Assembly (NCBI GenBank): GCA_030674455.1
Contig: JAUSGQ010000027.1
Location: forward strand, 18,786 to 82,785
DNA from: a bacterium
GTDB lineage: Bacteria > Patescibacteriota > Minisyncoccia > Phycocordibacterales > UBA2100
Reading direction: 5' to 3'
Length of the DNA: 64,000 nucleotides
Made by a program: the position numbers and the translations under genes. Of the stretch, positions 15,311 through 32,656 are shown piece after piece. Below the pieces are notes generated by a model. It was not told the DNA's origin and did not search any database. It was given only the letters and a program-made list of their open reading frames with translations. Positions within the stretch are counted from its first letter, which is position 1; each line of letters begins with the position of its first letter.

Positions 15311-16030
15311 ATGAGGCGCGTACTTGTCGTCGGTGGCTCGGAAGAGTATTCGGGGGCAGTATTCCTCGCTGGAATAGCCGCCCTGCGTTCCGGCGCGGAG
15401 TCAGTCATCATCATGGCTCCTGAAAAAGTTGCGTGGGCCATAAATGCACTCTCCCCCGACATAATGACTAGAAAATTGCGAGGAAGATATTTGGGTATGT
15501 CGCACAAGGCGGAGATACTCCGTCAGCTAAAAACTGCCGATGTTTTCGTATTGGGGAATGGAGCGACAACTCGCCCGGGCACAGCCACACTCATGCGGGC
15601 GCTCTGCAAATGGCCGGGAAAAAAGATAATTGATGCGGACGCTCTCAAGGTATTGCACAGCAACAAAGTTTCAAACGCGATTCTTACTCCGAATGCCGGC
15701 GAATGGAAATTGTTAAAAAAAAACAATGACATACAAAAACTTCTTGCGAAGAATATAATTATCAAAAAAGGGATGCCAACGCAGATTCTTTTCCAATCAA
15801 AGGTCTTTCAACAAAAGGGCACCAACCGCGGATTAGAAAAAGCCGGCACAGGCGATGTGCTTGCGGGCCTCTGTGCAGGATACTTGGCGCAGGGATTTTC
15901 TTCATGGGATGCGGCGAAGAAGGCATGCGAAACCGGAAACAAAGTCGCCGAACTCCTCACAAAGAAAAAGAGGGGGTACTATTTTCTTGCAAGCGATATT
16001 GTTGAGGAGCTTAGAAAAATATCTAAATAA
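15311..16030 (+). CDS. YjeF C-terminal domain / NAD(P)H-hydrate dehydratase-like carbohydrate kinase
   Basis: VLVVGGSEEYSGAVFLAGIAALRSGAESVII and C-terminal GTGDVLAGLCAGYLAQG. Confidence 0.75.
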   Translation: MRRVLVVGGSEEYSGAVFLAGIAALRSGAESVIIMAPEKVAWAINALSPDIMTRKLRGRYLGMSHKAEILRQLKTADVFVLGNGATTRPGTATLMRALCKWPGKKIIDADALKVLHSNKVSNAILTPNAGEWKLLKKNNDIQKLLAKNIIIKKGMPTQILFQSKVFQQKGTNRGLEKAGTGDVLAGLCAGYLAQGFSSWDAAKKACETGNKVAELLTKKKRGYYFLASDIVEELRKISK

Positions 16031-17588: not shown

Positions 17589-17668
17589 GGCACAAGAATA
17601 CAGTAGTTGGCAATAAGCGCCAATGCGAGACTGAGAATACGGTATAATTGATAAGCAAAACTTGACCT

Positions 17669-18262
17669 ATGGAATCACCGGAAGGAGGAAGACCAGCGAG
17701 CATGTCGAAGAGAAAGACGCTTAAAGAATTGGGTATCGCTGGTGCCGCAGTTAGACTTGGGCTTGCGGGAACAATTGGGAAGTTAATATTTGATGCCGCG
17801 AAAGAGAAAAAGGAGAAAGCTAAACCGAAATCAGATCCGGAAAAGGATTGGTTACCCACAATGCTGAATGAGTCACGGAAGGAGAGGGAAAACCCTAAAG
17901 TTCTTCAAGCTCAAGTAGATTTCCTGTGCAGGCTAGGAGAAAGCAAGGAGGACGTTGAGGCAGTGGTAAAAGGAAAAAAAGAAAAACTAGAGAACCTGGT
18001 AGATTCATGGATAGAGAGAGCAGATAAACAATCTGCTGGGTTCAGTGTAACTGAGAAAAATGACGTTAGGGTTAGAATTCGAGAGTGGTTTCAATTTAGA
18101 TTTGCTGATGAGAGAGGTCCTTTTAGTAAGAAAAATAAAGCTCCCAAGGAACCTCTAAATGAGGAAACTCTTAAAGCGGCGATTAGCGAGCAGATTCTTA
18201 TCCTTACAGATCTGCAGGACGAGATTGCTAGGGATAAATTGCGGGAAAACACTCCTAAATGA
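17669..18262 (+). CDS. Hypothetical Lys/Glu-rich protein
   Basis: 197 aa with charged, coiled-coil-like composition. TATAAT-like -10 at 17642. Confidence 0.4.
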   Translation: MESPEGGRPASMSKRKTLKELGIAGAAVRLGLAGTIGKLIFDAAKEKKEKAKPKSDPEKDWLPTMLNESRKERENPKVLQAQVDFLCRLGESKEDVEAVVKGKKEKLENLVDSWIERADKQSAGFSVTEKNDVRVRIREWFQFRFADERGPFSKKNKAPKEPLNEETLKAAISEQILILTDLQDEIARDKLRENTPK

Positions 18263-18365
18263 TAAATGCGAGAAGCACCGACCGGGTGCCTTTCGCATTG
18301 GATGTGCCGGGAGAGGGACTTGGTCACAAATAATTCCTGTGCCGTCGCACAAGAATTTTCGCTAA

Positions 18366-18399
18366 GCCTATCCATTTGTGATAGGCACCTGTAGACGGC
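18366..18399 (-). repeat. 35-nt motif GCCGTCTACAGGTGCCTATC-N7-GATAGGC (copy 2 of 3)
   Basis: Reverse-complement copy; the others are at 8703-8737 and 19872-19904. Confidence 0.75.
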
Positions 18400-18528
18400 C
18401 CGGCTCGGCATTTCGCGTACTCGCGAGAATATGCCTCCGCCTTTCAAGTCCCTCGCGCGATGTGCGCAGGCACACCGCTTCCCACCACAGTCTCACTGCG
18501 TTCGTCTGTGGGGTTGTACGATGATGTA

Positions 18529-18696
18529 CGAACCTATTTTAGCAGGAACTCGGACTGACTCGCGCGCTCCGCGCGCGTGGTGGCTTTGTATTCTGTCTTG
18601 CGATTGGATTTTGTACCCGCCCCCGCCCCGCCGCACTCTCCTCCATACGCATCTATTTCGCGGGGGTTTTTGAAAATTGAATGGGCGGCGGGGCGG
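18529..18696 (+). repeat. Long inverted repeat P (left copy), about 168 bp
   Basis: About 90% identical to the reverse complement of 27706-27889, with one roughly 14-nt indel. It has an internal GC hairpin. Confidence 0.85.
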
Positions 18697-18699
18697 GGG

Positions 18700-18733
18700 C
18701 AAACGGCTCAATTACCAGTAATTGAGCCGTTTG
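18700..18733. repeat. 34-bp perfect palindrome CAAACGGCTCAATTAC-ca-GTAATTGAGCCGTTTG
   Basis: 16-bp arms. Related AACGGCTCA / TGAGCCGTT half-sites recur at about 19600-19640 and 19826-19860, near the wHTH gene. Confidence 0.8.
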
Positions 18734-18817
18734 GGTTCAAATGCAATTCAGAATTGAGCCTCGTGCATTCTATTGTCGCTAGTGGCCCAGCCCACGGGGT
18801 GTCACCCTCGGCATCCG

Positions 18818-19185
18818 CCTCGGGCATTTCCGCTAGGGCTACGAGCGCCTAGATGCCTAGGTGCGCTGCTATTCCGCGCCATTTCCCGCGTGCTCGCGGG
18901 TGGCGCGGGCAGCGCCTCTATTTGGGGAGAGGAAGTTATCCTCTCCCCAGCGTCGGGCTCATCCTCGCATTGCTTTCGTTGCGTGCGTCGTTGTGTCCAC
19001 TGGTTTCGGTTTGCGTGTGTTAGTGCCTCGCATTAGCTGGCCTTCGGATTCCGCCACTCGCACAACCCCTCTCCTCGTTTGCATTCTTGCTTTTAGTTTG
19101 TCGCTTCCGCTTATGGATTTTGTAACTCCGATTAACGGAGGCGCTCGTCCGTAGGGCGTGGGCGCCCTAGCGGAAATGCCCGATG
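18818..19185. repeat. About 370-bp GC-rich non-coding segment bounded by 21-bp inverted repeats (CCTCGGGCATTTCCGCTAGGG / CCCTAGCGGAAATGCCCGATG)
   Basis: 20/21 inverted match, internal hairpins (GGGGAGAGG-aagttat-CCTCTCCCC), and no credible ORF on either strand. Confidence 0.6.
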
Positions 19186-19278
19186 CGCTGCCGATGCGCT
19201 TGCCCCACCCACCGTGCGCGCGCAAAATTTCCGCCGTGGAAGAATTAAACACGGCGGAACTCCCTTGCAAACAAAATT

Positions 19279-19824
19279 CTAAATCTTTTCGTAAACAACG
19301 CCGATACCAGTTTTCCCAACTTGTTTTATTTTTCCATCTTTCTCCAATGCAGAAAGATACCTCGTCGCCGTCGCGTCCGAGACATGCAAGAGTTTCTCCA
19401 CTTCGTCGTTTGTGACTTTGCCCTTCTTTTCCAATTCGGTCATTATCTTTTCGAGTTTGATTTTCTTTCTGCTTTGGATCGTCGCACGGGCTTTCGATAG
19501 TACATCACGACCGAGATTTACGATTGGCGCAACAACCGATACTGGCGCACTCGGCTGCGGCGCTGGTTGCTGCTCCGGTAACGGCTTGTCGTGAGCGGAG
19601 TCGAACGGCTCACTCGTAGCGGGTAACGGCTCATTTCTTCCCATTTGAGCCGTTTGCGTTGGCCCGCCGAAGCCTTGTGCGGAGGGGGCGGGTTCAAGTG
19701 GTGCTTCAACCACTGGTTCGTTTTGCGTTACCTCCGGTGTTGTGGGAGCCGGTGCCGCCTCCGGCGGCGGTATCACTGGTTCTTCCGCAGGTGGGAGAAC
19801 GGGCGATGTATCTTCGTCGGCCAT
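19279..19824 (-). CDS. Winged-HTH DNA-binding protein with Pro-rich N-terminal region
   Basis: C-terminal MTELEKKGKVTNDEVEKLLHVSDATATRYLSALEKDGKIKQVGKTGIGVVYEKI matches the wHTH fold found in Fic/DeoR-associated regulators. N-terminal 110 aa are low-complexity P/A/E-rich. Confidence 0.55.
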   Translation of the reverse strand: MADEDTSPVLPPAEEPVIPPPEAAPAPTTPEVTQNEPVVEAPLEPAPSAQGFGGPTQTAQMGRNEPLPATSEPFDSAHDKPLPEQQPAPQPSAPVSVVAPIVNLGRDVLSKARATIQSRKKIKLEKIMTELEKKGKVTNDEVEKLLHVSDATATRYLSALEKDGKIKQVGKTGIGVVYEKI

Positions 19825-19940
19825 GGCTCAATTCTAACTCATCAAACGGCTCATATAGTGGGGACATGAATGCCGTCTACAGGTGCCTATCTCAAACGAT
19901 AGGCCTTGCTTTTTCCGTAGAAAGTGGTATAATTAAATAG

Positions 19941-20069
19941 TTAAAGTTCCTCCGCGAGTTCAATCGCTTCGTCTTCGTCCAAACCTTCGTCAATCAATTC
20001 TTGCGCTTTCTCCGCGACATCCTCGTCCACCTCGTGTTCTTTCATCAATCGTTTCGTTTCTTCGTCCAT
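19941..20069 (-). CDS. 42-aa highly acidic peptide (MDEETKRLMKEHEVDEDVAEKAQELIDEGLDEDEAIELAEEL)
   Basis: Not in the ORF track (<60 aa). Its ATG lies 2 nt after the stop of the DUF4263-like gene (TGA-gc-ATG), implying translational coupling. The peptide is about 40% Asp/Glu. Confidence 0.5.
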   Translation of the reverse strand: MDEETKRLMKEHEVDEDVAEKAQELIDEGLDEDEAIELAEEL

Positions 20070-20071
20070 GC

Positions 20072-21220
20072 TCACTTGGATTTTTCAATATTATTGAGTG
20101 CATTTCTCGCCCTCTCCAACAGGTCATCGTAGGTTAGAATTTCTATTCCGTGATGGTACGAAAGTAATCTCCTCATATATTTCGGGTGATTGTCGGATTT
20201 TTGCTTAGTGCCTTCTATAGCATCCTTTGATCGTCTGCCAATCAAAAGAATACCTTTTGGTCGGTAATATTTCTGATGACGGTCTTCCAGGATTTCCTGC
20301 TCCGTTTCGTCATCCAGTTCCGAAGTATAAGCCGAGTAGTAAAATTCGAGATAACTTATGAGTTGACCCAACGCCTCAGCACACTTCGGCGCAAGAAACC
20401 TCCTGTCCATTTCGTCCACACGCAAGACTTCTTCCCCCGGCAACTTAACCTCCAGAACATCACTTAGGCCATCTACTCTCTTGAGTCGTCCGTCTGGAAT
20501 TTCTTCGCCAGCTTTCTTATAGTCATAGCTCGTGTATTCAGGACCGAATATCCATGGAATCTTCTTGAGTTCAGCTTGGATATCCGAAACTTCTCGCGAA
20601 GTTGGATTATCCAAAATCGCCTCAAAATCGTCGAGCTCTTTTCGCCGTTTTCCAATAATATCTTCGGTAAAGCCGATGGTCAACAACTTCTCCTCACCAC
20701 TACCCTTAACTATTTCTTCAACAATCTTGTCGATTGCTTTTGTTCCTCCGGGACTTTGAGCAATAACTGCTGTCTTACGCACAAGGTCATCGGTATCAAT
20801 TTCTTTATCGGAAAAAATAACAGTCGCGATTTTTGCATCAAAACTAACGCCCAACAGTTTATTTTGTTCCGTCAAGAAAGTATAGAGACCTGCCACCTCA
20901 TCTTCGCGCAGAGAAAAGTCTCTCTGTCTTTCCCAACTGTTTTGATCCGAGGTTTTATTTCTCTTAAATCTGTATAGGTCTATATCATAGTGGTGGACTT
21001 TCCCGGCTGAGTCTGGAATGTGTAGAGCAGTCACGACCGTCTTGATGCGGTCAGTGTTCTTGATAAATCTTGTTGCGCTTGCGAAGCCACCACTTTTGAG
21101 TTGGGCTGTACAATCATCAACTGTAATATCGCTTCCAGATTTTAGGCGGGACAACAGGTAACCGCCAAAATCGCCATAAGTTTCCTTAAATGAGGGTAAA
21201 ATTTCCTTCCAATTAATCAT
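20072..21220 (-). CDS. DUF4263 (Shedu SduA-like) PD-(D/E)xK nuclease-domain protein
   Basis: The C-terminal half carries IFGPEY...DGLSDVLEVKLPG (D..E-x-K), then KGILLIGRRS and a terminal IEILTYDDLLERA matching the DUF4263 pattern. The N-terminal half has no recognisable family. Confidence 0.5.
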   Translation of the reverse strand: MINWKEILPSFKETYGDFGGYLLSRLKSGSDITVDDCTAQLKSGGFASATRFIKNTDRIKTVVTALHIPDSAGKVHHYDIDLYRFKRNKTSDQNSWERQRDFSLREDEVAGLYTFLTEQNKLLGVSFDAKIATVIFSDKEIDTDDLVRKTAVIAQSPGGTKAIDKIVEEIVKGSGEEKLLTIGFTEDIIGKRRKELDDFEAILDNPTSREVSDIQAELKKIPWIFGPEYTSYDYKKAGEEIPDGRLKRVDGLSDVLEVKLPGEEVLRVDEMDRRFLAPKCAEALGQLISYLEFYYSAYTSELDDETEQEILEDRHQKYYRPKGILLIGRRSKDAIEGTKQKSDNHPKYMRRLLSYHHGIEILTYDDLLERARNALNNIEKSK

Positions 21221-21223
21221 AAG

Positions 21224-24200
21224 TCATTTAATCGGCCATGTGGGGATGGCTTTGTCTATTTCGCCCATGATACGGATTGTTTCGCGGAGGGAAACGACGA
21301 TTTTCATGTAGTGCTTTAGGTCGTCGGTAGAGAGCGTTCGCTCAGCTTTCTTACGGTCTTTGAGCCATTTCTCACATACTTGATAGCCGCCGATCATAAA
21401 CTCCCACACTTCTTTTTCGATACCCTCAAAGTATTGCCCTTGATTTACATAGACACGCAGTTCTTTTCCTTCGTATCGAGCCTCCGTTACTTTCCAATCG
21501 TCAAGATTAGCGGGAGCAGTACCGTCTATTTTGACATTCCATTTATTTGGCTCATCAAGAATAGTTTTTGATGCATCGAACGGATTTTCGCCAAGCAAAT
21601 GCAGGTTCACAAGCTCGTTTCCGAGCGCGACAAGTCGCTTGAAAATCTCCTTGTTGCTCGTGATAGGGAGACGGGGGAAATCAATCTTCAATTGTTCGGC
21701 GTAGCGCGTGCGATAGGTTGGCGAATGAAATACGGCGTAGGTGTAATAGAAAATGTCCTCGGGTCCAAAGGTTTTTACGATATCGCCTCGGCCCTCATGA
21801 ACGAATGTCAGCCCAAGATTCTCTTGTAAATCCCCAATCAATGTTTTGGAGAAATTCGACAATCGCTCCTCTCTCTTCAATAAAGATGGATTTGTAGACT
21901 CCGGGTAAAGATAGAGTGGAATGCTTACATTTCCTCCTCTATAGAACATATTTAGATCGCTGATTGCGTTTGAACAAAAGGCGAGATTCCAACCTGCTCC
22001 CCCTACAGCGTTTCCTGCTCTGCCTACACAGAGCGACAGGTTTGGAAACGTCATGTGTCGCATGACTTTTGTTCGAGGCCAGTCAACAGCATTTATATCC
22101 CAAAGAATGTAGCGTCTATCAAATGGGTTGTAGTCGTATGAATATATCAGTGACTGCCAGTTTATTGTCGATAGATTTCTTCTGGCTTTTGGCAATTTCC
22201 ATCCGCGGGTGTCTTTGAGTTGGAATTCATCTCTGACTTCTCTGTCGAGAGATTTTAAATCGGTAAAGCTACGGAATCTATTTATAAGCTCATTTTTTGA
22301 GAATGCAATTGCAAAATTATCTCGCGAGGTTTGAACACCGGTGGTTTTGAGTTTAGGATTTGAAACTGTCTCCTCAATCCCAAAGAGGCGGCCATATTCA
22401 TCCCCACCTTGAGAGTCCTCAAAGATGTACATCGGAGCAGATGGCTTCACTTCATCCCAATCGGTAGTTTGCAAGTCAGTAGTGGCAAGTCGTTCCCATT
22501 TATCAGCTCTCTTGCCCCGTAAATGCGCCTTAAAAATCTTTTTCTCAAGACCACGTTTCTTGATGAGGAAAATTATTGAAGTTCCAACACCAGCGACTTG
22601 CTCAAACACGTTTTGATCTTCCTCCTTTCTTTTTGCGCTTCCGTGTAAATCGTATATGTAAATCTGGTCGAAAGAGTTGATAAGGTGGTAGCGCATCCCT
22701 CGAAATGTTGGGTTGTCGACGAAGCCATTATTGGTAATGAGTCCGATGACCCCCTCTCCATGTTGCTCAATTTTCCATTGGGTAAATCGAATAAATTTTA
22801 CATAATCATCGCCAAGCCAATGCTTCCTCTCTTTGAAATGCCTGCCCGTGATCCTGTTGCCGTCTGTATATTTGTAATCTTCGATCAGGTCGCCGATCCA
22901 AGTCTTGATTTTCTTTTTCCGTGTTTTTCCATTCTTAAGAGTTTCTAAGATGGTTGTCTCGACGGCGTTTTGAGAAATTCCAGAATAAGGAGGATTACCC
23001 AATACCACCAAAATAGGCACATCCCGCTTTACTGTTTGTGCTTTCTCTGACTCGTGTGGGATTGAATCAAAACCGAAGAGTTTTTGGGGTGGTTTATTTG
23101 GGTCGTCGAGTGTGTTAGCAAGATACACCTTGAAGCGGTCGTTGTCTGAATCATCATCACTTGCAGTAAGTTTGAAATCAAAACCCAAGTGCTCAATTTC
23201 AAGAGTAAGTTTCAAATGGGCAATTGCATAAGGAGCTATTAGTAATTCGAAGCCGTAGAAATGTTTGAGAATGTGATTACCGACGATTTTGTTAAACTCG
23301 CGCGACACCATCTCATCTCCCAGCGCCTCATTCTCCTTTTTAGTATTCCAATAAATCTGTTGGATAGCGGACATGAGAAATGTTCCGGTGCCGGTGGCCG
23401 GATCGAGAAGGTTTACCGATTCATCAGCAAGCCCTTTTTCTTTCCCGAATTTATTACGGAGAATCCAATCAACGCTTCGCACGATGTAGTCCACGACTGG
23501 CTTCGGCGTGTAATACACTCCACGCGCCTCGCGCTCTTTTGGGTCATACTCGGCAAGAAACGGCTCGTAAAATTGGATAACAGGGTCTTCGCCCGGCTTG
23601 TGCTCAACAAGTTTTTGTCGGATGCGTTCGATTTCTGAAGCGTTTAACTGGTCTACAAGAAGCTGTGTAGATTGAGCAATGTTCGGAATCGCAGAGGCAA
23701 CTTTTTTAATCAAGCCGTATAAGTCGGCAAGAATGGGCACGTTAGTTGGAAGATAGTCAATTGCATTCGTGAGCGTAAGTTCTGTGTCGTTTCCTCTGTG
23801 TTCGTGCTCAAGAGCTGACAAGAACAAAGAATATGCCATGGTTTCTGCGACCATGTTCGCAAATTGGTGCGAGGAGATATCTTGAATAAGCGTTTTCTCA
23901 AATGTTTCTTTGAGTTTCCAAAGGTCTGTTTTTTCGTCAGTCATTTCTATCGCCTCTTCCACCTGCTTTGAAAGTAGACGTGTCTTTTTTGCGAGGGCGA
24001 GGGCAAGCTGTTTGGGCGTTCGTGCCTGATAAGCATGTCCCTCAAAAAACTTCACTAGAAATTGCTCAAATTGTTCCGAGGTTGTGCCATTTAAAGCGGT
24101 AAGATCAAAAACCACCTCGCTCGTTTTCTTTGGTTCGCCGTCTTCCCATTGCCAAAGTTGCCACTCACGCAGGTTAGTAAAGATTATATTCTCAAGAGAT

Positions 24201-24556
24201 TCTTTGTATTTAGAAAATTGGTCGTGGAATTTATCCGCGTTGAGATTTCTTTCGTCAGGCATTTTTACCTCAACCCATCCTATAAGGTCGTTTCTATTTC
24301 GTATAGTTATATCGGGGAAGCCGATTTTCTTTTCGTATTGAGTCGTTGTTTCTTCTGGTGTCGCATGAGTATCACGCAATTTGACGGCATCGCTTTTTGC
24401 GAACTCCTCAAAAAATCCACAAAGAATTGGGTAGTAAGATCGTTCCGTTGCTGTGTCTCGGATTCTCGCTATCTTTTGTTTTGTTTGTTCAATAAGTATA
24501 TTCATAGCGTTATGCAAGTATAGAAAAATGAACCGAGGCAATTCGCTCGCGTTCAA
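21224..24556 (-). CDS. MmeI-like Type IIL/IIG restriction-modification protein (PD-ExK nuclease + N6-adenine MTase + TRD)
   Basis: N-terminal D82..E96-V-K98 (FPDITIRNRNDLIGWVEVK). MTase motif I LLDPATGTGTFL and motif IV VLGNPPYSG. About 500 aa of C-terminal target-recognition region. An alternative start at M18 (24505) would remove the overlap with the SNF2 gene. Confidence 0.7.
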   Translation of the reverse strand: MNASELPRFIFLYLHNAMNILIEQTKQKIARIRDTATERSYYPILCGFFEEFAKSDAVKLRDTHATPEETTTQYEKKIGFPDITIRNRNDLIGWVEVKMPDERNLNADKFHDQFSKYKESLENIIFTNLREWQLWQWEDGEPKKTSEVVFDLTALNGTTSEQFEQFLVKFFEGHAYQARTPKQLALALAKKTRLLSKQVEEAIEMTDEKTDLWKLKETFEKTLIQDISSHQFANMVAETMAYSLFLSALEHEHRGNDTELTLTNAIDYLPTNVPILADLYGLIKKVASAIPNIAQSTQLLVDQLNASEIERIRQKLVEHKPGEDPVIQFYEPFLAEYDPKEREARGVYYTPKPVVDYIVRSVDWILRNKFGKEKGLADESVNLLDPATGTGTFLMSAIQQIYWNTKKENEALGDEMVSREFNKIVGNHILKHFYGFELLIAPYAIAHLKLTLEIEHLGFDFKLTASDDDSDNDRFKVYLANTLDDPNKPPQKLFGFDSIPHESEKAQTVKRDVPILVVLGNPPYSGISQNAVETTILETLKNGKTRKKKIKTWIGDLIEDYKYTDGNRITGRHFKERKHWLGDDYVKFIRFTQWKIEQHGEGVIGLITNNGFVDNPTFRGMRYHLINSFDQIYIYDLHGSAKRKEEDQNVFEQVAGVGTSIIFLIKKRGLEKKIFKAHLRGKRADKWERLATTDLQTTDWDEVKPSAPMYIFEDSQGGDEYGRLFGIEETVSNPKLKTTGVQTSRDNFAIAFSKNELINRFRSFTDLKSLDREVRDEFQLKDTRGWKLPKARRNLSTINWQSLIYSYDYNPFDRRYILWDINAVDWPRTKVMRHMTFPNLSLCVGRAGNAVGGAGWNLAFCSNAISDLNMFYRGGNVSIPLYLYPESTNPSLLKREERLSNFSKTLIGDLQENLGLTFVHEGRGDIVKTFGPEDIFYYTYAVFHSPTYRTRYAEQLKIDFPRLPITSNKEIFKRLVALGNELVNLHLLGENPFDASKTILDEPNKWNVKIDGTAPANLDDWKVTEARYEGKELRVYVNQGQYFEGIEKEVWEFMIGGYQVCEKWLKDRKKAERTLSTDDLKHYMKIVVSLRETIRIMGEIDKAIPTWPIK

Positions 24557-27500
24557 ATTCCATTTGTAGTTTACCCCGAAGATCCTTTTCTTTGATGTTC
24601 GCTCCGCGCATCTGGTCTTCTTGAGCTTTAATATATTTCTTCTGTGCGCGAAAGAGTTCCTGCTGTTTCTTACTTATTTGGTCTTGAATCTGAAGTCTTT
24701 CGTGATGTCCCAAAGTACGAGAAGCACGCACTGTCTTTTTTAGGTCGTTAATTTCTTTCCGCCGGACATCCATTTCTTGCTGAAACTTTAAGAGTGACTC
24801 TTCCACGAATTGGTTCAGGCGGTCCATTTCCTCAAAAATGTATTGCTCATTATCAGAGGTAATGCTCCCTTTTTCTTTAGTTACTCGTTTTGTGGCGACA
24901 TCCTCAAGGTCGTCGCGTAGACGGCTATCTATTCTCTCTTCATGGACAACATCGAGCGCAAACAACTTTTCAAGTCGAGAATGCTCTATTGGTTTCCACT
25001 CCGCTCCGTCTTTGTAAAGTCCTGAAAGGATTATTTTTTCGAATCTTTCTTGGGCATTATTTACTGTAAGGCGTTTGCAATTCAACAAATCAAAGGCAAT
25101 CTGACACTCTTTACCAACAAGATCTTCAAAAGGATGTCGTTTTTTGTCCGAACTGTGCCGAACAGATATTTTCCAAGTGCCACGCATCTTTTTGTCTCCC
25201 TCCAGTTTTTCTTTGATAAAGGGCTCTTTGTTTGTGGCTGGTTTATAGCCACTCAACTTTTCTTCCTCTTTTAGGCTACCGAGATAGTATGTCCGACCGT
25301 CATAATCAAAAATATTTTCTGCACGATAAGAAATTCCATTTCCAAATGAAATATCTATATATCGGCGAAGCAATGAGTCATACCGGTCAAGCGAGTCTGT
25401 AAGCTGTTGTTTTCTTAAGCGCAATTTCCGTCTAACTTCTTCATCAAAATGCTGCACAACTTTGCGTTGAGCATCTTCTACTTTTTCTTGGATAACATCA
25501 AAAAGCTCGAGCTGTAACTGTTGAAATCCGTTTTCAATCTCTTTTTCTGTGCGGCACTTTCTATATATATCAAGAATTTTTCTCTCAAAATCGAGTCCGG
25601 CTCCAAGCCCCGCAAGGGCCACCTCGCGAACTTCATAGCCATCGTCTGTAAGTTGTTCTGTTCCAAGCATTTGATCGCTGAAATCAAACAGGTTACCGAA
25701 TAGCTTAATTTTTTCACTTAAAAGTTCGTAGACTCTCTGGTCGGCGTAGTTGCGTTTGTTTAGGAAGTTAATAACCATCACATCTAATTTTTGGCCATAT
25801 CGATGACAACGGCCAATGCGCTGTTCAACGCGTTGAGGATTCCACGGTAAATCGTAGTTAATGACAATATTCGCAAACTGCAAGTTTAATCCCTCTGCCC
25901 CCGCCTCGGTTGTAATGAGAATCCCTTTTTTTAACGATTGAAACTTCCAAATAAGTGCTTTCCGCAAGTTGATTGATTTTGACCCTTCCTCGGCTTCTTT
26001 GGGAAATTCGCGTTGCCATTCCTCAAAAATCTCACGGGCGCGTTTTCCTGCGTTTGTTCCATTGAACAAAACAAGCTCGTACCCAATTCCTCCAAGAAGC
26101 TTTTCTAGGTGATCTTGTGTACGACGCGATTCGGTAAATATGACCGCCTTTTGTGGCCATTCTTGTTTCTCAGCATGTTTGAAAACTTTTCCGAGCACAC
26201 GAACGAGGGCTTGGCTTTTTTGGTTCTTATCAATCGTTGAGGCAAGGAAATGATAGTTTAGAACATCGCGAAGCTCACGTAAGACTTCTTCCTTTGTAAA
26301 TATGTGATCAATCTCTCTTTCAACAAACTTTTTTGAATCGTCGTCCAGCAATTCGTCCTCTCCAAGGTCGTCGGCATCTTCCGATTCCTCCTCAATTTTT
26401 GATAGATCTTCCTCTGTATCATCTAACCCGGGGAGAGTTTCTTGCTCGTTTTCTTTTTCAGCAGGGTCATATTTAGGAAAAGTAACTTTTGAAAGCTTTT
26501 TGTTCCACCTGTTCTCTGCTTCAGTCTGCTCCTGATCGGCAAGAGCGTTGAGTTCATCCTGAGTTACTTCAAATTCTTGCTGTAAACGCTTTGCAAGGAA
26601 ATGAGAAACTTTGTAAAGCGTTCCAGCGATAGCGAAACTCGAACTCGCGAGTATTTTTCGGTATACAAGCTCCATCATGTTTCGCTGAGTTGCCCTTGTA
26701 GACGCGAGATACGGCCGTCGCAAGTACTCGCTCACGTTATTGTAAAGATCCACCTCGTCGTCGTTTGGTGCAAAGTCTTCGGTAATGCTGTAGCGATTGG
26801 TAAACGCAACAAGTCCCTTGACCTGCTTGCGTAATGTTCTAGTCAAGATTCCACCGCTCGGTTCACCGGACTCTGGGTCAATAGTTCCCATTAGTCGTTC
26901 TTTTAATTGAAGCAATCTTTCTGTTTTGTTCTGTTTTTTCACAGGATTTGCGAAAAGTGTCTTGAACGAGTATTCCGTACCAAGATAATTTTCGTCAAGG
27001 AAACTTGTCAGCCCAAACAACTCCATGAGGTTATTCTGTAGAGGCGTTGCTGTTAAGAGTATTTTTGGCCTTCCTTTTAGGACCTCACGAATTTTCTTTG
27101 CGGTTTTATTGGTCTTTCTCCAAACATTTCGCAAGCGGTGTGCCTCGTCAATGACAACAAGATCCCATGTGATGGTTGCACAGATAAAATCGTATCGATA
27201 AGCAAAGTTGTGTGAAGCAATGAAGATACCCCCGTCTTCCAACGGGTTAGCTTTCATTTGTTCTTTTTGCATTTTTTTCAAAATTGGACCGTCAAGAATT
27301 TTGCTTTCAAGATAAAAACGGTTTCGCAGTTCGTCTTGCCATTGCGTACGAAGTGAGGCGGGCACGAGAATCAATATCTTCTGACGCCCCTCTGTCATAA
27401 GTTGATCTATGACTAGTCCTGCCTCAATTGTCTTTCCTAGCCCAACCTCATCGGCCAAAATTGCCCCTCTTGAAAGAGGGCTCTTAAATGCGAAAATTGC

Positions 27501-27629
27501 GGCATCAACCTGATGCGGGTTTAGGTCAATATTTGCCGCTCGAATGGAATTGTTGAGCTTCTCTCTGTCAGAAATTGATTTCTTCTCCGTGAGAGCATGA
27601 GCTAAATATGTTTTAAAAAGTTCCGACAT
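24510..27629 (-). CDS. SNF2-family helicase/translocase with about 450-aa C-terminal coiled-coil extension
   Basis: Motif I ADEVGLGKT, motif II VVIDEAHRLRN, LLTATPLQNNLMELF, and helicase-C motif VI QRIGRCHRYGQ. The C-terminal 450 aa are charged and coiled-coil with no known domain. Confidence 0.8.
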   Translation of the reverse strand: MSELFKTYLAHALTEKKSISDREKLNNSIRAANIDLNPHQVDAAIFAFKSPLSRGAILADEVGLGKTIEAGLVIDQLMTEGRQKILILVPASLRTQWQDELRNRFYLESKILDGPILKKMQKEQMKANPLEDGGIFIASHNFAYRYDFICATITWDLVVIDEAHRLRNVWRKTNKTAKKIREVLKGRPKILLTATPLQNNLMELFGLTSFLDENYLGTEYSFKTLFANPVKKQNKTERLLQLKERLMGTIDPESGEPSGGILTRTLRKQVKGLVAFTNRYSITEDFAPNDDEVDLYNNVSEYLRRPYLASTRATQRNMMELVYRKILASSSFAIAGTLYKVSHFLAKRLQQEFEVTQDELNALADQEQTEAENRWNKKLSKVTFPKYDPAEKENEQETLPGLDDTEEDLSKIEEESEDADDLGEDELLDDDSKKFVEREIDHIFTKEEVLRELRDVLNYHFLASTIDKNQKSQALVRVLGKVFKHAEKQEWPQKAVIFTESRRTQDHLEKLLGGIGYELVLFNGTNAGKRAREIFEEWQREFPKEAEEGSKSINLRKALIWKFQSLKKGILITTEAGAEGLNLQFANIVINYDLPWNPQRVEQRIGRCHRYGQKLDVMVINFLNKRNYADQRVYELLSEKIKLFGNLFDFSDQMLGTEQLTDDGYEVREVALAGLGAGLDFERKILDIYRKCRTEKEIENGFQQLQLELFDVIQEKVEDAQRKVVQHFDEEVRRKLRLRKQQLTDSLDRYDSLLRRYIDISFGNGISYRAENIFDYDGRTYYLGSLKEEEKLSGYKPATNKEPFIKEKLEGDKKMRGTWKISVRHSSDKKRHPFEDLVGKECQIAFDLLNCKRLTVNNAQERFEKIILSGLYKDGAEWKPIEHSRLEKLFALDVVHEERIDSRLRDDLEDVATKRVTKEKGSITSDNEQYIFEEMDRLNQFVEESLLKFQQEMDVRRKEINDLKKTVRASRTLGHHERLQIQDQISKKQQELFRAQKKYIKAQEDQMRGANIKEKDLRGKLQMEFERERIASVHFSILA

Positions 27630-27705
27630 ATATATTCAAAACATTATCTCCAATTGTACTCCTTTGCTCCTTTTAGCACACGCCCAAAGAGAAGTCCTTA
27701 AAAAT

Positions 27706-27889
27706 CCGCCCCGCCACCCATTCAATTTTCAAAAACCCCCGCGAAATAGATGCGTATGGAAGAGAGTGCGGCGGGGCGGGCGGGCGCGTACTCGCGCCCG
27801 TGTACAGAATCCAATCGTGCCACAGAGTACAAAGCCACAGCGCGCGCGGAGCGCGCGAGTCAGTCGGAGTTCCTGCTAAAATAGGTTCG
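27706..27889 (-). repeat. Long inverted repeat P' (right copy)
   Basis: Reverse complement of 18529-18696, with an extra hairpin CGGGCGCGTACTCGCGCCCG. Confidence 0.85.
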
Positions 27890-27907
27890 AGCATCGTTGT
27901 AGATACT

Positions 27908-28069
27908 CACAACACAAGAGACAAGGTCGGATTTCGGCTGGTTTTCTTTGGCGCGGGACAAAGAAAACCAGTGTGGTTGGGGCATTCCGCGCGCTTCGCG
28001 CGCGTGGAGGGTGAGGTTCGCAAAATTCAAAAGCCGAAGATTTTTGGAGGGAGGATTTTTTGGAGGGGA
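27908..28069 (+). repeat. Long inverted repeat Q (left copy), about 160 bp
   Basis: Near-identical to the reverse complement of 31332-31483 apart from an 11-nt indel. Contiguous with P'. Confidence 0.85.
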
Positions 28070-28072
28070 AAG

Positions 28073-29719
28073 TTAATTAAGTCTTTTGATAACATCTTTA
28101 TCAACTCGAATCCCACTTAGTCGGTTCTTATCTATCCATCTTAGGAATTCAGATGGTCGCATTGGTTTTCCCGCAAAGCGATTGGCCCAAAGGAAGTAGC
28201 ATTGCTTTCGAGTGCGCGTTAGAGCTACAAGGAACCTAAAAATTTCCAGTTCTTTTATGTTGTTTGGATCTCTAGGGAGGTCGCCATTATGCAACCCAAC
28301 AATAAATACAAATTGAGCAGAAAGGCCTTTGGCACCCTCGTAAGAGGTTAATTTTATAGTTGGCTGCTCCGATTCGTGTTGAGTTGCGACAATTTCCACT
28401 GGCTTTTCCCACTTTTCAGCCTCTGAAAGCAAAGCGTCTCTATAACTTGCTTCTATCTCGTCGAACAGTGGTTTTTGATGCTTTACTGCTTTTTCGAGCG
28501 CGCTTCGAGAAAAATTAGGGTTATCTGCTTCAAGGGCAATACGCCATCCGATATTAGAATTCGGGTTTTCTTTAAGGTAAGGCAATGCCATTGAATGAGT
28601 TATCTTGGTGGTTTCTTCCCCACCTGCACGATAATCAATTATAAATCCCTCATCTTGCAGATGTTTGGCAATCTGGGATAGATACTGTTTTGGTCCTATT
28701 ACCAAAGCAGTGGGGAATTTATCTTTGATGGATTCGGTTATATATTCTTTAGGAATCTTTTTGATTATATGCGCCACGGTTCGTCCGAGGTAATTTGTTT
28801 TGAGTTGTTGGGCTGAAATTTCCAGCACCTTGATTTTAGGGTGAGCCGTACTGTCTTTCCGTCTGTAAGGTTCAAAATATTTGTATGGCTTATCTATACG
28901 TCCGGGCAGAAGCTTTTTCTGCTTAGCAACCTCAATTACATCCGCGAATGAATTTACAATAACTTCGGGGCAACGGAGGCAAAAAGGTAATTCACAATTC
29001 TCAAACTCATCAGCTCGCCATAAATGTCGGATGAATTCGTAGCTGGCACCTTTAAGTTGACTATAAAGGGCTTGGTCATCATCTCCAGCAACAGCAATGG
29101 AATTATCTAAACTCAAAAGATCTATCAAACTTACTTCAAGCCGGTTGAAATCTTGATATTCATCAACCAACACAAGTTTGTATCGTGGAACTTTAACTTT
29201 ACCAGTGGAATAAACGGAATGAACTCTGAAAATAGAGTCATCAAAACTGACCGTATCATAGTAATTTGAGCGAGATAGATAAAAATCCGATTCTGCGTTT
29301 TCTAATGTATTGCGCATATTTCCCACAAATTTCGGGGCTTCTTTTGTATGTAGAATTTCCCAATCTCTTTTTATCAAGGTTGGTAAGTTGGGAAAAATCT
29401 TGAATTTTTCTGACAACCCCTCCCGAAGGTTAGGATTTTCGTGTAGAAGCTTTACGCAATAACCATGAAATGTGAAAACTTGGGCAAGATGACCCAGTTT
29501 TTCATCTAGCTCGTCCTTTAAGTTATTTATAAAAGTTAAGACAAGCTGACTCCTTGCCCCGTCGTTATTTTTCTCAAGCAATTCTTTAAATAATGTTGTC
29601 TTTCCGGCTCCAGGACCTGCTAGTATTACTTTTTTGGGGTGGTCCGAAATAACAATTTTTTTGATTGCCGCCTTAAGCTCTTCTTCCATATTTGCGGACG
29701 TATGCTTCAGTTCAGCCAT
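28073..29719 (-). CDS. UvrD/Rep-like SF1 DNA helicase
   Basis: Walker A ILAGPGAGKTTLF, motif II VLVDEYQDF, and a UvrD_C-like GAKGLSAQFVFIVGL...LVALTRTRKQCYF. Confidence 0.7.
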   Translation of the reverse strand: MAELKHTSANMEEELKAAIKKIVISDHPKKVILAGPGAGKTTLFKELLEKNNDGARSQLVLTFINNLKDELDEKLGHLAQVFTFHGYCVKLLHENPNLREGLSEKFKIFPNLPTLIKRDWEILHTKEAPKFVGNMRNTLENAESDFYLSRSNYYDTVSFDDSIFRVHSVYSTGKVKVPRYKLVLVDEYQDFNRLEVSLIDLLSLDNSIAVAGDDDQALYSQLKGASYEFIRHLWRADEFENCELPFCLRCPEVIVNSFADVIEVAKQKKLLPGRIDKPYKYFEPYRRKDSTAHPKIKVLEISAQQLKTNYLGRTVAHIIKKIPKEYITESIKDKFPTALVIGPKQYLSQIAKHLQDEGFIIDYRAGGEETTKITHSMALPYLKENPNSNIGWRIALEADNPNFSRSALEKAVKHQKPLFDEIEASYRDALLSEAEKWEKPVEIVATQHESEQPTIKLTSYEGAKGLSAQFVFIVGLHNGDLPRDPNNIKELEIFRFLVALTRTRKQCYFLWANRFAGKPMRPSEFLRWIDKNRLSGIRVDKDVIKRLN

Positions 29720-29721
29720 AC

Positions 29722-29928
29722 CTATTTGACCAGATCCTTAATGGGCACACCGAGCGTTCTTGCTATTTTCACGATTGTTGCAAGTGTCGGATTTGTCTTT
29801 CCGTTTTCTATGTTGCTGATAAAACTTCGTGCCAATTTGAGTGAACGGGAAATGTCCCCCTGCGTAATACCTTTCTCCATTCGGAGTCGCTTCATGTTTC
29901 GTCCGAACGCCTGCGACTCTTTGCTCAT
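29722..29928 (-). CDS. XRE-family HTH transcriptional regulator
   Basis: 68 aa carrying KRLRMEKGITQGDISRSLKLARSFISNIENGKTNPTLATIVKIARTLGV. Confidence 0.8.
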   Translation of the reverse strand: MSKESQAFGRNMKRLRMEKGITQGDISRSLKLARSFISNIENGKTNPTLATIVKIARTLGVPIKDLVK

Positions 29929-29950
29929 GCATTTTAGTATATAGACAGAT

Positions 29951-31510
29951 ATGTTGAAAGGTAATAGTATGTTATATGATACTACTATGACCCATTTCCT
30001 CTACGCACGCAAAAGCACCGATGTTGAGGACAAGCAAGTCCTTTCTATTGAAGCGCAACTTTTTGAGTTGCGCGCGCTCGCGCGAGAAAATAATTTGGAA
30101 ATTGCCGCGGAGTTTGTTGAAAAGCAATCGGCGAAAATGCCTGGCCGTCCTATTTTCAATGACATGACGGCACGAATACAAAAAGGTGAAGCACAAGGAA
30201 TCATTTGTTGGAAACTTGATCGTCTCGCGCGCAATCCAGTGGACGGCGGGCAGATTAGTTGGTTTTTGCAAAACGGCATCATCGCACACATTCAGACGCA
30301 CGACCGCGCGTATTATTCCGCCGACAATGTTTTGATGATGTCGGTGGAATTCGGTATGGCGAATCAATATGTGCGCGACCTTGCGACGAACACCGCGCGT
30401 GGCTTACGACAGAAAGCGCGACAAGGTGTATATCCGGGCCAAGCGCCACTCGGATATTTGAATGACCCGCGTACAAAAACTATTGCGGTAGACCGCAAAA
30501 AATCCAAAATCGTGCGCGCCGCTTTTGAGCTGTACGCTCAAAACGGCTCGCGTTTAGAAGATGTCTCGCACTTTCTTTTCGATAATGGTATTACTACAAA
30601 AGCGACGAACCGATGGAAAAGTAGCGGAGAGAGGCCGCTGAAAAAAGACCAAGCAAAATTGATACTCACGAATTCTTTTTATTACGGCCACTTTCGCTAT
30701 GCCGGAGAAATGTACGAGGGAAAGCATACGCCGATTGTTTCCAAAGAGCTTTTTGACAAAGTGCAAAAAGTTTTAGCTCTGCGCGGCAAAGTACAACGGC
30801 ACACAAAAGAGCCGCAGGCTCTTTGTGGCCTTTTGAAATGCGGAGAGTGCGGATGTTCTATCACAGCCGAGGTGCAGACGAAGAAAAGCGGGAGACAATA
30901 TATTTACTACCACTGCACCAAAAAGCGCGGAGTATGTGATGGGGCATACATACGCGAAGAAACACTCGATACGCAACTCTCCGAGCTGCTGTCGCGTTTT
31001 CACTTGCCGCCCGCGTGGGCGAGTGAATTACAGAAAATGACGGAGCGCGACGAGGCAGAAGCCACTCAAACTACGGCGGCGTCTGTTCAAGAAATGCGAG
31101 CAAAGATTGCCGAGTTGGACGGCAAAATTGCTCGCATCACCGACCTCTTTGTGGAGCAGGATATTGAGCGCGGCGAGTATCTTGAAAGGAAACGCGCGCT
31201 GATGTCCGAAAAGAAGTCGCTACAAGAGCGTTCGCTCTTGCTTGAACGGAACGCCACCGTGTGGCTCGAACCCATGCGCAAGTGGATAAACGACGCTTCA
31301 ATGCTTGAAGAAATAGCAAAATCCCAAGACCTCCCCTCCAAAAAATCCTCCCTCCAAAAAATCTTCGGCTCGAACCTCACCCTCCACGCGCGCGAAGCGC
31401 GCGGAATGCCCCAACCACACTGGTTTTCTTTGTCCCGCGCCAAAGAAAACCAGCCGAAATCCGACCTTGTCTCTTGTGTTGTGCCGGGAGAGGGACTTGA
31501 ACCCTCATGA
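29951..31510 (+). CDS. Large serine recombinase (resolvase/invertase N-domain + recombinase domain + zinc ribbon)
   Basis: Catalytic YARKSTDVEDKQ...SIEAQ, a Cys cluster CGECGCS...YYHC, and a coiled-coil C-region. The last ~60 codons run through repeat Q' and 29 nt into tRNA-Leu, so the true stop is uncertain. Confidence 0.8.
   Translation: MLKGNSMLYDTTMTHFLYARKSTDVEDKQVLSIEAQLFELRALARENNLEIAAEFVEKQSAKMPGRPIFNDMTARIQKGEAQGIICWKLDRLARNPVDGGQISWFLQNGIIAHIQTHDRAYYSADNVLMMSVEFGMANQYVRDLATNTARGLRQKARQGVYPGQAPLGYLNDPRTKTIAVDRKKSKIVRAAFELYAQNGSRLEDVSHFLFDNGITTKATNRWKSSGERPLKKDQAKLILTNSFYYGHFRYAGEMYEGKHTPIVSKELFDKVQKVLALRGKVQRHTKEPQALCGLLKCGECGCSITAEVQTKKSGRQYIYYHCTKKRGVCDGAYIREETLDTQLSELLSRFHLPPAWASELQKMTERDEAEATQTTAASVQEMRAKIAELDGKIARITDLFVEQDIERGEYLERKRALMSEKKSLQERSLLLERNATVWLEPMRKWINDASMLEEIAKSQDLPSKKSSLQKIFGSNLTLHAREARGMPQPHWFSLSRAKENQPKSDLVSCVVPGEGLEPS
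31332..31483 (-). repeat. Long inverted repeat Q' (right copy) abutting the tRNA-Leu 3' end
   Basis: Reverse complement of Q. Homology ends exactly at the tRNA discriminator base. Confidence 0.85.
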
Positions 31511-31565
31511 GCTTGCGCTCGAACGATCTTGAGTCGTTTGCGTCTGCCAATTCCGCCATCCCGGC
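31482..31565 (-). tRNA. tRNA-Leu(CAA)
   Basis: Minus-strand cloverleaf with acceptor GCCGGGA/TCCCGGC, anticodon loop CTCAAGA, a long variable arm (GAGCGCAAGCTC) and T-loop TTCAAGT. Confidence 0.8.
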
Positions 31566-31693
31566 CTCGCCCCTCATAGCTTTAGCGACGTGGGGCAATA
31601 CCGAACATAATACCTATTAAAGCTCATTTTGTAAGTCCTACCGCACAGCAATCCATACTGTATACAGCATACAGAATACTGTATACTTTACTC

Positions 31694-32656
31694 ATGTCGG
31701 GTTACTACAGCGATTCAATATTTTGGGTTGAGGTGGACCGAATCAAGCCGAATCCATTCCAGCCGCGCAAGGCGTTTGATGAAGCGGCTCTTGCCTCGCT
31801 CGCCGAATCAATCCGTCAATATGGCGTGCTTCAACCGCTCACGGTAACGCGAAAAGAAATCGAACGGCCCGGAGAGGGGATATTTGTCGAGTACGAACTT
31901 ATCGCCGGAGAGCGGCGCCTCCGCGCATCAAAGCTCGCGGGGCTCACGCAGCTACCCGTTGTCATACGCACGTCGGAGTATAGCGACCGCATGAAGCTTG
32001 AGCTCGCAATCATAGAAAACTTACAGCGAGAAGACTTGAATGCGATTGACCGCGCGGTTGCGTTTAACCGCCTTGTAACTGAATTCGGATTAAAGCATGT
32101 GGACATCGGCAAGCGTGTCGGCAAGAGCCGTGAGTATGTCTCGAATACATTGCGCATTCTCGCGTTGCCGAAGGATATGCAGGATGCACTCGGGGCAGGC
32201 GATATAACAGAGGGCCACACACGGCCGCTGCTCATGCTTGTGGACCGCGTCGAGATGCAAAAAACATTGTTTCAGGAAATCATGACGCGCAAACTCACCG
32301 TGCGCGATGCCGAACAAGTGGCGCGCCGCATTGCGACGGAGCGGACTCGTAAAGCCGACCTTACGCCTGAATTAATGCTTCTTGAACGCGAGCTGACGGA
32401 AAAGTTGGGGACGCGAGTTCGCATAGAAAAGAAAGACCAGGGCGGAAAAGTGCTGATAGATTTCTTTTCGGTAGACGATTTAGTTCACATACGCGAAATC
32501 TTTACGCGCCAACAGGTGAAAGAAATCATAGCCGAAGAGAAGGCGGCGCAAACGGAAGCTCCGGCAATTATCGCAGAAGTAGAACAGGTGGCTGTCGCAC
32601 CACAGCCGGAGCGGGAAGAAGATGACCTGTACTCAATCAAGAATTTCACCGTCTAG
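31694..32656 (+). CDS. parB: ParB/Spo0J-family partition protein
   Basis: ParB N-domain LIAGERRLRASKLAGL, an HTH, and a C-terminal dimerisation region. No parA in the window. Confidence 0.8.
   Translation: MSGYYSDSIFWVEVDRIKPNPFQPRKAFDEAALASLAESIRQYGVLQPLTVTRKEIERPGEGIFVEYELIAGERRLRASKLAGLTQLPVVIRTSEYSDRMKLELAIIENLQREDLNAIDRAVAFNRLVTEFGLKHVDIGKRVGKSREYVSNTLRILALPKDMQDALGAGDITEGHTRPLLMLVDRVEMQKTLFQEIMTRKLTVRDAEQVARRIATERTRKADLTPELMLLERELTEKLGTRVRIEKKDQGGKVLIDFFSVDDLVHIREIFTRQQVKEIIAEEKAAQTEAPAIIAEVEQVAVAPQPEREEDDLYSIKNFTV

Follow-up and report, generated by a model that had tools for sequence, protein, structure and literature searches.

Large serine integrases, such as those of phiC31, Bxb1, A118/LI, SPbeta (SprA) and TP901-1, are prized for needing only two short sites. 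The element described here is an island of about 13 kb with a proposed span of 18507–31483, located beside a tRNA-Leu(CAA) gene in a 64 kb stretch of contig JAUSGQ010000027.1 from a member of the Patescibacteria. This stretch is referred to as the window. The island encodes a large serine recombinase (LSR) and resembles the elements of the known integrases in several respects: the recombinase has three domains (a resolvase domain followed by Recombinase and zinc-ribbon domains), the core is short and non-palindromic and is shared by hybrid left and right attachment sites (attL and attR), an XRE repressor gene diverges from the integrase gene, and the outer motif is shifted by 4 bp between the P and B half-sites, as measured for SPbeta Int (PMC11722253). 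It differs from them in that the island family targets the discriminator/CCA end of many tRNA genes, the integrase open reading frame (ORF) runs through an arm of the attP site and the core, and the att arms are conserved over ∼150–400 nt instead of ∼25 nt. Furthermore, the island contains, in inverted orientation, what appears to be a second copy of the whole attP region, and neither phage or conjugation genes nor a candidate recombination directionality factor (RDF) were identified there. A scan of IMG/VR with the LSR gave no relatives and thus no support for a phage.

Four other systems were compared. The yeast 2-micron plasmid, with Flp/FRT in 599 bp inverted repeats, corresponds to the circle predicted for the island in having two site-bearing inverted repeats and two unique segments, with the recombinase gene adjoining one end of a repeat and a structured, origin-like region adjoining the opposite end of that repeat. 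However, Flp is a tyrosine recombinase and the 2-micron plasmid is non-integrating with equimolar isomers, whereas the island has a serine recombinase and an essentially fixed orientation, and its circle is a prediction. The serine invertases (Gin of the Mu G segment, Cin of the P1 C segment, Hin and PinQ) likewise combine a serine recombinase with adjacent DNA bounded by inverted repeats that carry crossover sites at their ends. These enzymes are small (∼190 amino acids, with a C-terminal helix-turn-helix) and require an enhancer and Fis, and their segments coexist in two orientations that differ in gene expression; the island enzyme has 507–519 amino acids and integrase-type C-terminal domains, the orientation is fixed and a flip would have no recognizable effect. 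tRNA islands and tycheposons, which mostly use tyrosine integrases, share variable cargo including defence genes and tandem accretion at one tRNA, but they duplicate 15–50 nt of the tRNA 3' end as direct repeats, whereas only 3–7 nt are shared in the present family and the island has no tyrosine integrase. In the folded single-strand sites of CTXphi attP and integron attC, as potentially in the island, two inverted copies on one strand can pair into a double-stranded site. Those sites are short hairpins acted on by tyrosine recombinases that exchange one strand pair, whereas the island stems would be ∼330 bp with kilobase loops and a serine recombinase cuts all four strands; the arms are 98–100% complementary, which is compatible with folding, but the recombinase is of a different class. 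At least one defining feature of each of these four systems is missing from the island.

Repeats were located using a repeat finder, tRNAs were identified using ARAGORN and junctions were defined by comparison of the raw sequences. Genes were assigned from Pfam, PADLOC and PHROG profile matches. The island consists of two modules (Table 1). Module N, between the inverted arms P and P', carries a defence operon together with a winged-helix gene and a structured region (S); module M, between the inverted arms Q and Q', contains a helicase gene, an XRE gene and the LSR gene. Positions 27908–28020 (Q) and 31371–31483 (Q') form an inverted match of 113 nt with 100% complementarity, far beyond chance, and 29–42 nt more match (28032–28073 and 31329–31370) after an 11 nt insertion in Q. 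P and P' match at 84% over their outer 113 nt (18507–18619 and 27799–27911) and at 97% over their inner 75 nt (18622–18696 and 27706–27780). The outermost 24 nt diverge strongly, with ∼14 of 24 nt identical between the outer and internal P half-sites as counted from the junction sequences. An initial annotation of the window had described both inverted pairs; they are present and slightly larger than it proposed, and its identity of about 90% is too high for the outer part of P and P'. The gap of 18 nt that it placed between P' and Q disappears because P and P' reach ∼22 nt further out, so that P' and Q abut and overlap in the 4 nt core CACA. The minus strand of P'Q is exactly Q' + core + P. 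The reading of the recombinase ORF through Q' and 29 nt into the tRNA was confirmed. Within the window no further copies of the P or Q repeats were found, and the repeats are thus not a generic repeat family.

Related loci in Patescibacteria (86, L-numbered) were read for comparison. The nested layout recurs in about 40 of them, at many different tRNAs. The complete set P…P'Q…Q'–tRNA was found in nine loci, and the internal site in ∼40 further ones. One of these, L038 (OY970354.1), is a complete 829 kb chromosome from a long-read project, and the layout is therefore not an assembly artefact. The same three junctions were found in all nine: host DNA against core + P, Q' + core against the tRNA and, on the other strand, an internal, uninterrupted Q' + core + P. 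In eight of the nine the shared core is only 3–7 nt long (TGTG in the window, and GCTC, TGCTC, GCT, GTG and TTTGGTG), with an overlap narrowing to GT in L004; the outlier, L001, shares a 29–32 nt sequence (X) and has a degenerate tRNA-like stretch between X and the tRNA. In the tRNA, the last acceptor base, discriminator and CCA position fall within the core. For large serine integrases the outer motif is offset between attP and attB, by 5 bp in most cases and by 4 bp for SPbeta Int, and this offset tells the two sites apart (PMC11722253). A T-loop-like (C/T/A)GAAC in the P half-site lies exactly 4 bp further from the core than TCGAAC in the tRNA half-site (36 of 36 loci), in agreement with the attP/attB shift of 4–5 bp for DNA-binding domain 2 of LSRs (PMC11722253). 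The host-side left half-site of attB shows no conservation.

We read this junction pattern as the signature of conservative site-specific recombination. P'Q would be a second, intact and inverted attP, and P and Q' would be the two parts into which another attP was split when the element integrated at the discriminator/CCA end of tRNA-Leu(CAA). With a probability of roughly 0.7, window positions 18507–31483 represent an integrative element of an LSR family that inserts at tRNA 3' ends, with its attP region duplicated in inverted orientation. Integration at tRNA-Leu by the LSR, with two modules each bounded by inverted repeats, had been suggested in the initial annotation and is supported here.

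In the proposed integration, attP (Q'–core–P) and attB (downstream flank–core–tRNA) would have been recombined by the LSR, with the crossover inside TGTG, probably at GT. The products would be attL (host flank/TGTG/P) at 18507 and attR (Q'/TGTG/tRNA-Leu) at 31480, leaving the tRNA intact with the end of Q' as its new downstream sequence, and the empty site would have read …GCGTTCGTC-TGTG-CCGGGAGAGGG…. The second attP copy of ∼350 bp (P'–CACA–Q, 27706–28073) would remain intact and divide the element into modules N and M. Excision would yield a circle with two inverted attP-bearing repeats, in which XRE–LSR–Q'–core–P–S–winged-helix gene would form one contiguous backbone and the internal copy would lie amid the cargo. 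Catalysis by the LSR, the position of the crossover and the existence of the circle are predictions from sequence features.

LSR homologues number in the thousands, are ∼515–520 amino acids long and share 60–85% identity; named hosts include Kaiser-, Adler-, Yonath- and Nomurabacteria as well as other Parcubacteria and Patescibacteria. Sequence beyond the LSR stop codon is available for 66 loci. In 53 of them a tRNA gene, encoded on the opposite strand, follows the LSR gene at a distance of no more than 300 nt, and in 46 of these 53 the LSR ORF ends inside the tRNA 3' end, 23–29 nt in (41 or 67 nt in three loci). In the non-redundant subset a tRNA lies just beyond the LSR stop in 51 of 64 loci, with the end of the ORF inside the tRNA in ∼44. 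The targets include tRNA-Leu (five anticodons), Ile, Glu, Tyr, Arg, Val, Asn, Gln and Ala, and LSR clades track the type of target tRNA. Practically all loci with a sufficient left flank have the Q/Q' pair. Many contigs begin 100–140 nt left of Q, inside P', as would be expected if P/P' were a perfect repeat at which assemblies break; the repeats explain the frequent contig breaks at such loci in Patescibacteria. With the rules of three junctions and of the 4 bp half-site shift, islands of cargo and defence genes can be delimited precisely in genomes whose mobile elements are poorly annotated. The family seems to be abundant in Patescibacteria; its members recognize the universal T-arm and CCA end of tRNA genes, switch between tRNAs and carry a second, inverted, long attachment region. 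A full-text literature search, which was incomplete and therefore leaves room for a prior description, found no account of this family or layout; the element family is possibly undescribed. In L025 (5670–5720) and L042 (6417–6470) the LSR gene abuts a stretch that is identical to a tRNA-Asn 3' half up to the anticodon loop, followed by divergence, and ARAGORN reported no tRNA; this tRNA-Asn may be interrupted (by an intron?) or truncated. Some single metagenome-assembled genomes contain two different LSR elements at different tRNAs (L066 + L071, L018 + L044 and L047 + L082), for example at tRNA-Arg(TCT) and tRNA-Leu(TAA) in one Paceibacterota genome.

The left junction was examined further in the host flank. 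An exact 20 nt direct repeat of the tRNA 3' end, TGTGCCGGGAGAGGGACTTG (18303–18322 and 31480–31499), had been overlooked in the initial annotation. The 12 nt T-arm fragment that it did report (TTCAAGTCCCTC, 18443–18454) is present, but belongs to a separate miniature insertion of 184 nt and not to the island. This insertion is 77% identical, inverted, to 8603–8778, just downstream of tRNA-Phe, where the copy is bounded by a 20–23 nt direct repeat of the tRNA-Phe 3' end. Each of the two mini-insertions (both ∼180 nt) contains an inverted T-arm-like motif that matches its own tRNA, and no recombinase was found associated with either. Since the left flank of P is homologous to the DNA downstream of tRNA-Phe, 18506/18507 is supported as the true left junction, and the LSR element would have inserted between a pre-existing mini-insertion and tRNA-Leu. 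The alternative of the 20 nt repeat at 18303 as the true attL, with a crossover in the T-loop, was ruled out by the 77% identical homologue with its own tRNA-Phe direct repeat, and likewise by seven of nine complete relatives, which have no such repeat.

Several points weigh against this assignment. The att sites were assigned wholly from comparative anatomy. The outer P half-site differs from the internal one, and excision of the window copy is doubtful for this reason. Neither an empty tRNA-Leu site in a close relative nor a circular junction for this genome was recovered, and the internal copy was not seen in three loci with a left flank of 7–10 kb (L023, L052 and L063). In L086, a syntenic relative (LSR–tRNA-Leu(CAA)–ParB–RelA), the LSR is 81% and the host RelA/SpoT 78% identical, and LSR divergence that is close to host-gene divergence suggests long vertical residence, not recent mobility. 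For canonical LSRs, sites of ∼50 bp suffice and no accessory site is needed, and we know of no precedent for a function of an internal attP copy. When metagenomes were scanned with the tRNA-Leu 3' half in search of empty or alternative sites, the result was a single contig (L085), unrelated and of low GC content, whose tRNA-Leu is unoccupied.

The two copies of the attachment region are far more alike within a locus than between lineages. Q and Q' are 98–100% identical in ∼45 loci apart from the Q insertion, P and P' are usually 98–100% identical, and the arms differ greatly between lineages. The Q insertion (7–13 nt, T-rich) occupies a fixed place inside the F-G^S-N codons, 113–117 nt from the core, and is conserved across lineages. 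Arm identity together with the persistent insertion indicates that the two copies are homogenized yet kept distinct. The G·T bias of arm mismatches, a test of single-strand pairing, was 63 to 32 for Q and 7 to 13 for P, which is weak, and the loci are not independent. Modules have been exchanged: the window and L030 have S regions of 92% identity, but LSRs of 59% identity and different P half-sites. P of the window is itself chimeric, with an outer 24 nt that are different but form a valid-looking P-type half-site; it may plausibly have arisen when homologous recombination between direct P copies deleted part of an earlier tandem array. The backbone seems to have been resident for a long time, with the cargo being replaced, and the window copy looks old and mosaic and may no longer excise as a unit.

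The first rival explanation treats the internal copy as a functionless relic, in which an ancestral inversion within a tandem pair of elements was frozen and has stayed uniform only through gene conversion. Tandem arrays with Q'/P junctions do occur (L031, L072, L075 and L047), the order P N P'Q M Q' is exactly what would result from an inversion across such a junction, and the similar divergence of LSR and host genes suggests old, mostly vertical elements. However, the layout has been kept across LSRs of 45–85% identity and many target tRNAs, the arms remain 98–100% identical while the Q insertion persists at its one position, and gene conversion without matching inversions would be unusual. 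Moreover, a unit in L031 that has lost the LSR keeps P, P' and a palindromic remnant of Q and Q', and hence all four arms. We consider a relic unlikely. The related suggestion of the initial annotation, a one-off product of successive integration and inversion, was not borne out, as the nested repeats are conserved throughout the family, with P'Q as an apparently intact attP and P + Q' as its split copy.

A second possibility is that N and/or M are invertible cassettes flipped by the recombinase or RecA, with phase variation of the defence operon or of the recombinase, as the initial annotation had also envisaged. The geometry is right, since the sites are inverted and their cores are non-palindromic and inverted, and near-identical arms imply ongoing recombination or gene conversion. 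Against this, module M has one orientation at every tRNA junction seen: no flipped module, with the XRE side next to the tRNA, was found among the 51 non-redundant loci with a tRNA beyond the LSR stop. S was found by homology searches in 13 loci, in 11 of which it lies beside the outer P in the common orientation (in L072, beside a P that follows Q'). In the other two it is inverted, next to the other P copy, at a contig start in L046 and abutting a repeat copy at a contig end in L053; both are paths of short-read contigs through a perfect repeat, and a mis-join is possible. Five loci with Q' followed by a P-type half-site (L031, L047, L053, L072 and L075) were considered as flipped isomers and rejected, as a tRNA upstream of Q is absent from all of them; their junctions are better read as tandem arrays or as free circles, and these two readings explain them equally well. 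Flipping would alter no identifiable reading frame or promoter link, and canonical LSRs do not recombine attP with attP, attL or attR (PMC11722253). Inversion may have happened occasionally, with nothing that suggests a switch, and we regard invertible cassettes as improbable. The orientation data also argue against frequent flipping of the 2-micron kind and against an alternative integration site, which was never seen in use.

Even less probable are two adjacent elements with terminal inverted repeats, a non-autonomous cargo element (P…P') and an autonomous recombinase element (Q…Q'), with P'Q as a mere junction. Each module is bounded by its own inverted repeats, the modules recombine independently, as the S and LSR identities to L030 illustrate, and arrays of several P-bounded modules exist (L031). 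However, a serine recombinase cannot excise a single module between cores that are non-palindromic and inverted, the host/P and Q'/tRNA junctions mark P and Q' as the ends of one unit whose exact fusion is the internal junction in all nine complete loci, and Q directly against host DNA was seen in no locus. Generic structured repeats or terminators, resembling repetitive extragenic palindromes (REP) or miniature inverted-repeat transposable elements (MITE) and flanking the genes by chance, would account for the GC-rich hairpins and terminator-like elements in the arms and for the CGCGCGCTYCGCGCGCG hairpin common to P and Q, but can practically be dismissed given the lack of other copies in the window and the constant position of the arms relative to LSR and tRNA in relatives, where they co-vary with the LSR lineage.

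We tentatively propose, with low confidence, that the LSR binds the internal copy as a partner site in cis, for synapsis or in an accessory role, and that this copy is also a conserved handle flanking the cargo. SPbeta Int forms stable, non-recombining attP–attP tetramers (PMC11722253). Amplification of the 2-micron kind in the circle appears improbable. There is a still slimmer chance that the paired arms let a single-stranded element fold into a dumbbell, in which the P:P' and Q:Q' stem of ∼330 bp would be a complete attP with the modules as loops. The dumbbell, if true, would explain arm complementarity, the fixed orientation of the modules and the four arms of the LSR-less derivative without inversion, and would allow a serine integrase to act on incoming single-stranded DNA, such as that taken up in natural transformation, a route on which Patescibacteria are presumed to rely. 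The serine enzyme would then have an equivalent of CTXphi attP and integron attC. A functional internal copy would give serine integrases a new layer of control or a new form of substrate, be it for accessory synapsis, for flipping of the 2-micron kind or as the second strand of a site folded from single-stranded DNA.

Table 1. Features of the island and its borders, in window coordinates; att assignments are putative.
Feature	Positions	Strand	Basis or remark
Partial tRNA-Leu 3'-end copy, 20 nt	18303–18322		Far direct repeat of the pre-existing mini-insertion, not an att site of the island
Miniature tRNA-3'-end insertion, 184 nt, holds TTCAAGTCCCTC	18323–18506	−	Native downstream flank of tRNA-Leu before the island
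attL core TGTG, host flank/P junction	18507–18510	+	Three-way junction comparison
P arm, right-hand arm of attP	18507–18696	+	Outer 24 nt form a P-type half-site, CGAAC 18 nt from the core; chimeric relative to P'
S, structured backbone region of ∼400 nt adjoining P	18789–19187	+	Fold z = −8.3; no Rfam match; found in 13 loci
Winged-helix DNA-binding protein, 181 amino acids, conserved backbone gene of module N	19279–19824	−	Pfam HTH_24/DUF977; PHROG DNA-binding protein
SduA/Shedu-like nuclease (DUF4263), cargo	20072–21220	−	Pfam SduA_C PF14082 4.8e-11; PADLOC SduA models down to 1e-15
Type IIG/Type ISP-like methyltransferase with specificity domain, 1110 amino acids, cargo	21224–24556	−	Pfam Type_ISP_C 2e-86, N6_Mtase; PADLOC REase_MTase_IIG 7e-211
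SNF2 helicase, DrmD-like, 1039 amino acids, cargo	24510–27629	−	Pfam SNF2-rel_dom, Helicase_C; PADLOC DrmD 3e-159
P' arm, inverted copy of P	27706–27911	−	Repeat finder, junction comparison
Internal attP core CACA	27908–27911	−	Minus strand reads Q'-TGTG-P
Q arm, inverted copy of Q'	27908–28073	−	11 nt T-rich insertion at 28021–28031, conserved in the family
UvrD/GajB-like helicase, module M cargo	28073–29719	−	Pfam UvrD-helicase; PADLOC GajB; PHROG DNA helicase
XRE-type repressor, divergent from the recombinase	29722–29928	−	Pfam HTH_3 2e-16
Large serine recombinase, 519-codon ORF	29951–31510	+	Pfam Resolvase, Recombinase, Zn_ribbon_recom; PHROG integrase 2e-79
Q' arm, left-hand arm of attP	31329–31483	+	Encodes the recombinase tail; hairpins and terminator-like element for the tRNA
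attR core TGTG	31480–31483	+	Overlaps the discriminator/CCA-end position of the tRNA
tRNA-Leu(CAA), integration target with B'-type half-site, left intact	31481–31565	−	ARAGORN; Rfam tRNA 54.5 bits

The LSR contains a resolvase catalytic domain (PF00239, 8e-21) with a Y18-R20-K21-S22-T23-D24 motif that is invariant in 13 sequences, followed by matches to PF07508 (7e-15) and PF13408 (8e-10); Cys292, Cys297, Cys300, Cys322 and Cys329 are invariant in the alignment. Directionality in LSRs is controlled by a coiled-coil insertion in the zinc-ribbon domain; residues 350–430 of the island enzyme are conserved and helical-looking. The true start is likely to be 29987. The tail was analysed by codon position in 54 LSR genes. 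Third-position conservation was ∼0.5 in the gene body and 0.66–0.73 for residues 436–480, and the codon pattern was lost after about residue 481 (0.6/0.6/0.6). From this profile, the inner part of Q' encodes a conserved tail, PSKKSSLQKIFGSNLTLHAREARG, under additional constraint at the DNA level, and the outer ∼80 nt of Q' are att and hairpin DNA that is read through until the stop codon inside the tRNA. The functional LSR probably ends near residue 485, with the ORF then running through the att arm into the tRNA. Look-ups of exact proteins returned no record for the LSR (both start variants) or the winged-helix protein. In L053 (322–1575) a reverse-transcriptase-like ORF with a YLDD motif takes the place of the XRE gene directly upstream of the LSR gene.

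Promoter and terminator scans of the arms gave nothing above shuffled controls, and an Rfam search over 17500–32500 matched the tRNA only. RNAalifold gave no consensus structure for 33 Q' arms, as their hairpins failed to align; on inspection by eye, a GC hairpin 35–65 nt from the core recurs with differing sequences. In L031 (2248–15689) several modules form an array in which four almost identical P-type repeats alternate in orientation, with a 42 nt perfect palindrome at two junctions; the LSR-less unit of L031 lies beside tRNA-Leu(GAG) and has a 160 nt palindromic Q remnant.

The island is flanked by host genes, MiaA on the left and ParB on the right. The XRE and recombinase gene pair is kept in L001, L002 and L004, and homologues of the winged-helix protein occupy the equivalent position and strand in L004, L040 and L062; excision by LSRs depends on an RDF, and a role of this protein as one is a guess. 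The nuclease of the cargo operon has the DUF4263 nuclease domain of SduA that defines Shedu. The combination of DrmD-like, Type IIG/ISP-like and SduA genes in the operon (20072–27629) could not be assigned to a named defence system. The GajB-like helicase gene, between Q and the XRE gene, has no GajA partner, lacks conservation among relatives and is absent from the closest related elements.

Region S was found in the window, L030 (96–489), L029 (331–724), L005, L025, L033, L040, L059, L062, L068, L072, L053 and L046. It is more conserved than the recombinase and comprises a 14 bp long-range closing stem and several hairpins. Compensatory changes were found in 17 of 64 pairs, compared with 8.4 ± 1.7 in shuffles. 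A conserved G·U pair points to a plus-strand RNA, and S is a candidate for a new noncoding RNA or a replication origin of the element. A guide RNA complementary to the target tRNA was considered and rejected on inspection, as the conserved GGGGAGAGG hairpin is unchanged whatever the target.

Other repeats were noted in the window and its relatives. The motif GCCGTCTACAGGTGCCTATC occurs three times, at 8704–8727 and 18375–18399 in the two mini-insertions and at 19872–19904 just upstream of the winged-helix gene, and could be an operator. In L002 an exact 33 nt direct repeat (14845–14877 and 14979–15011) overlaps the tRNA-Tyr 3' end and more repeats lie near tRNA-Trp (14912–15992); these look like further small insertions at tRNA 3' ends. 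Diverged direct repeats of 80–85 nt with 60–73% identity at 57781–58117 and 35615–35912 are probably intra-coding. A palindrome of ∼36 nt, CATTCTAACGTTTTGCAAAACGTTAGAATG, has seven intergenic copies in the window, at 16641, 32678, 51264, 54868, 54929, 54992 and 56518.

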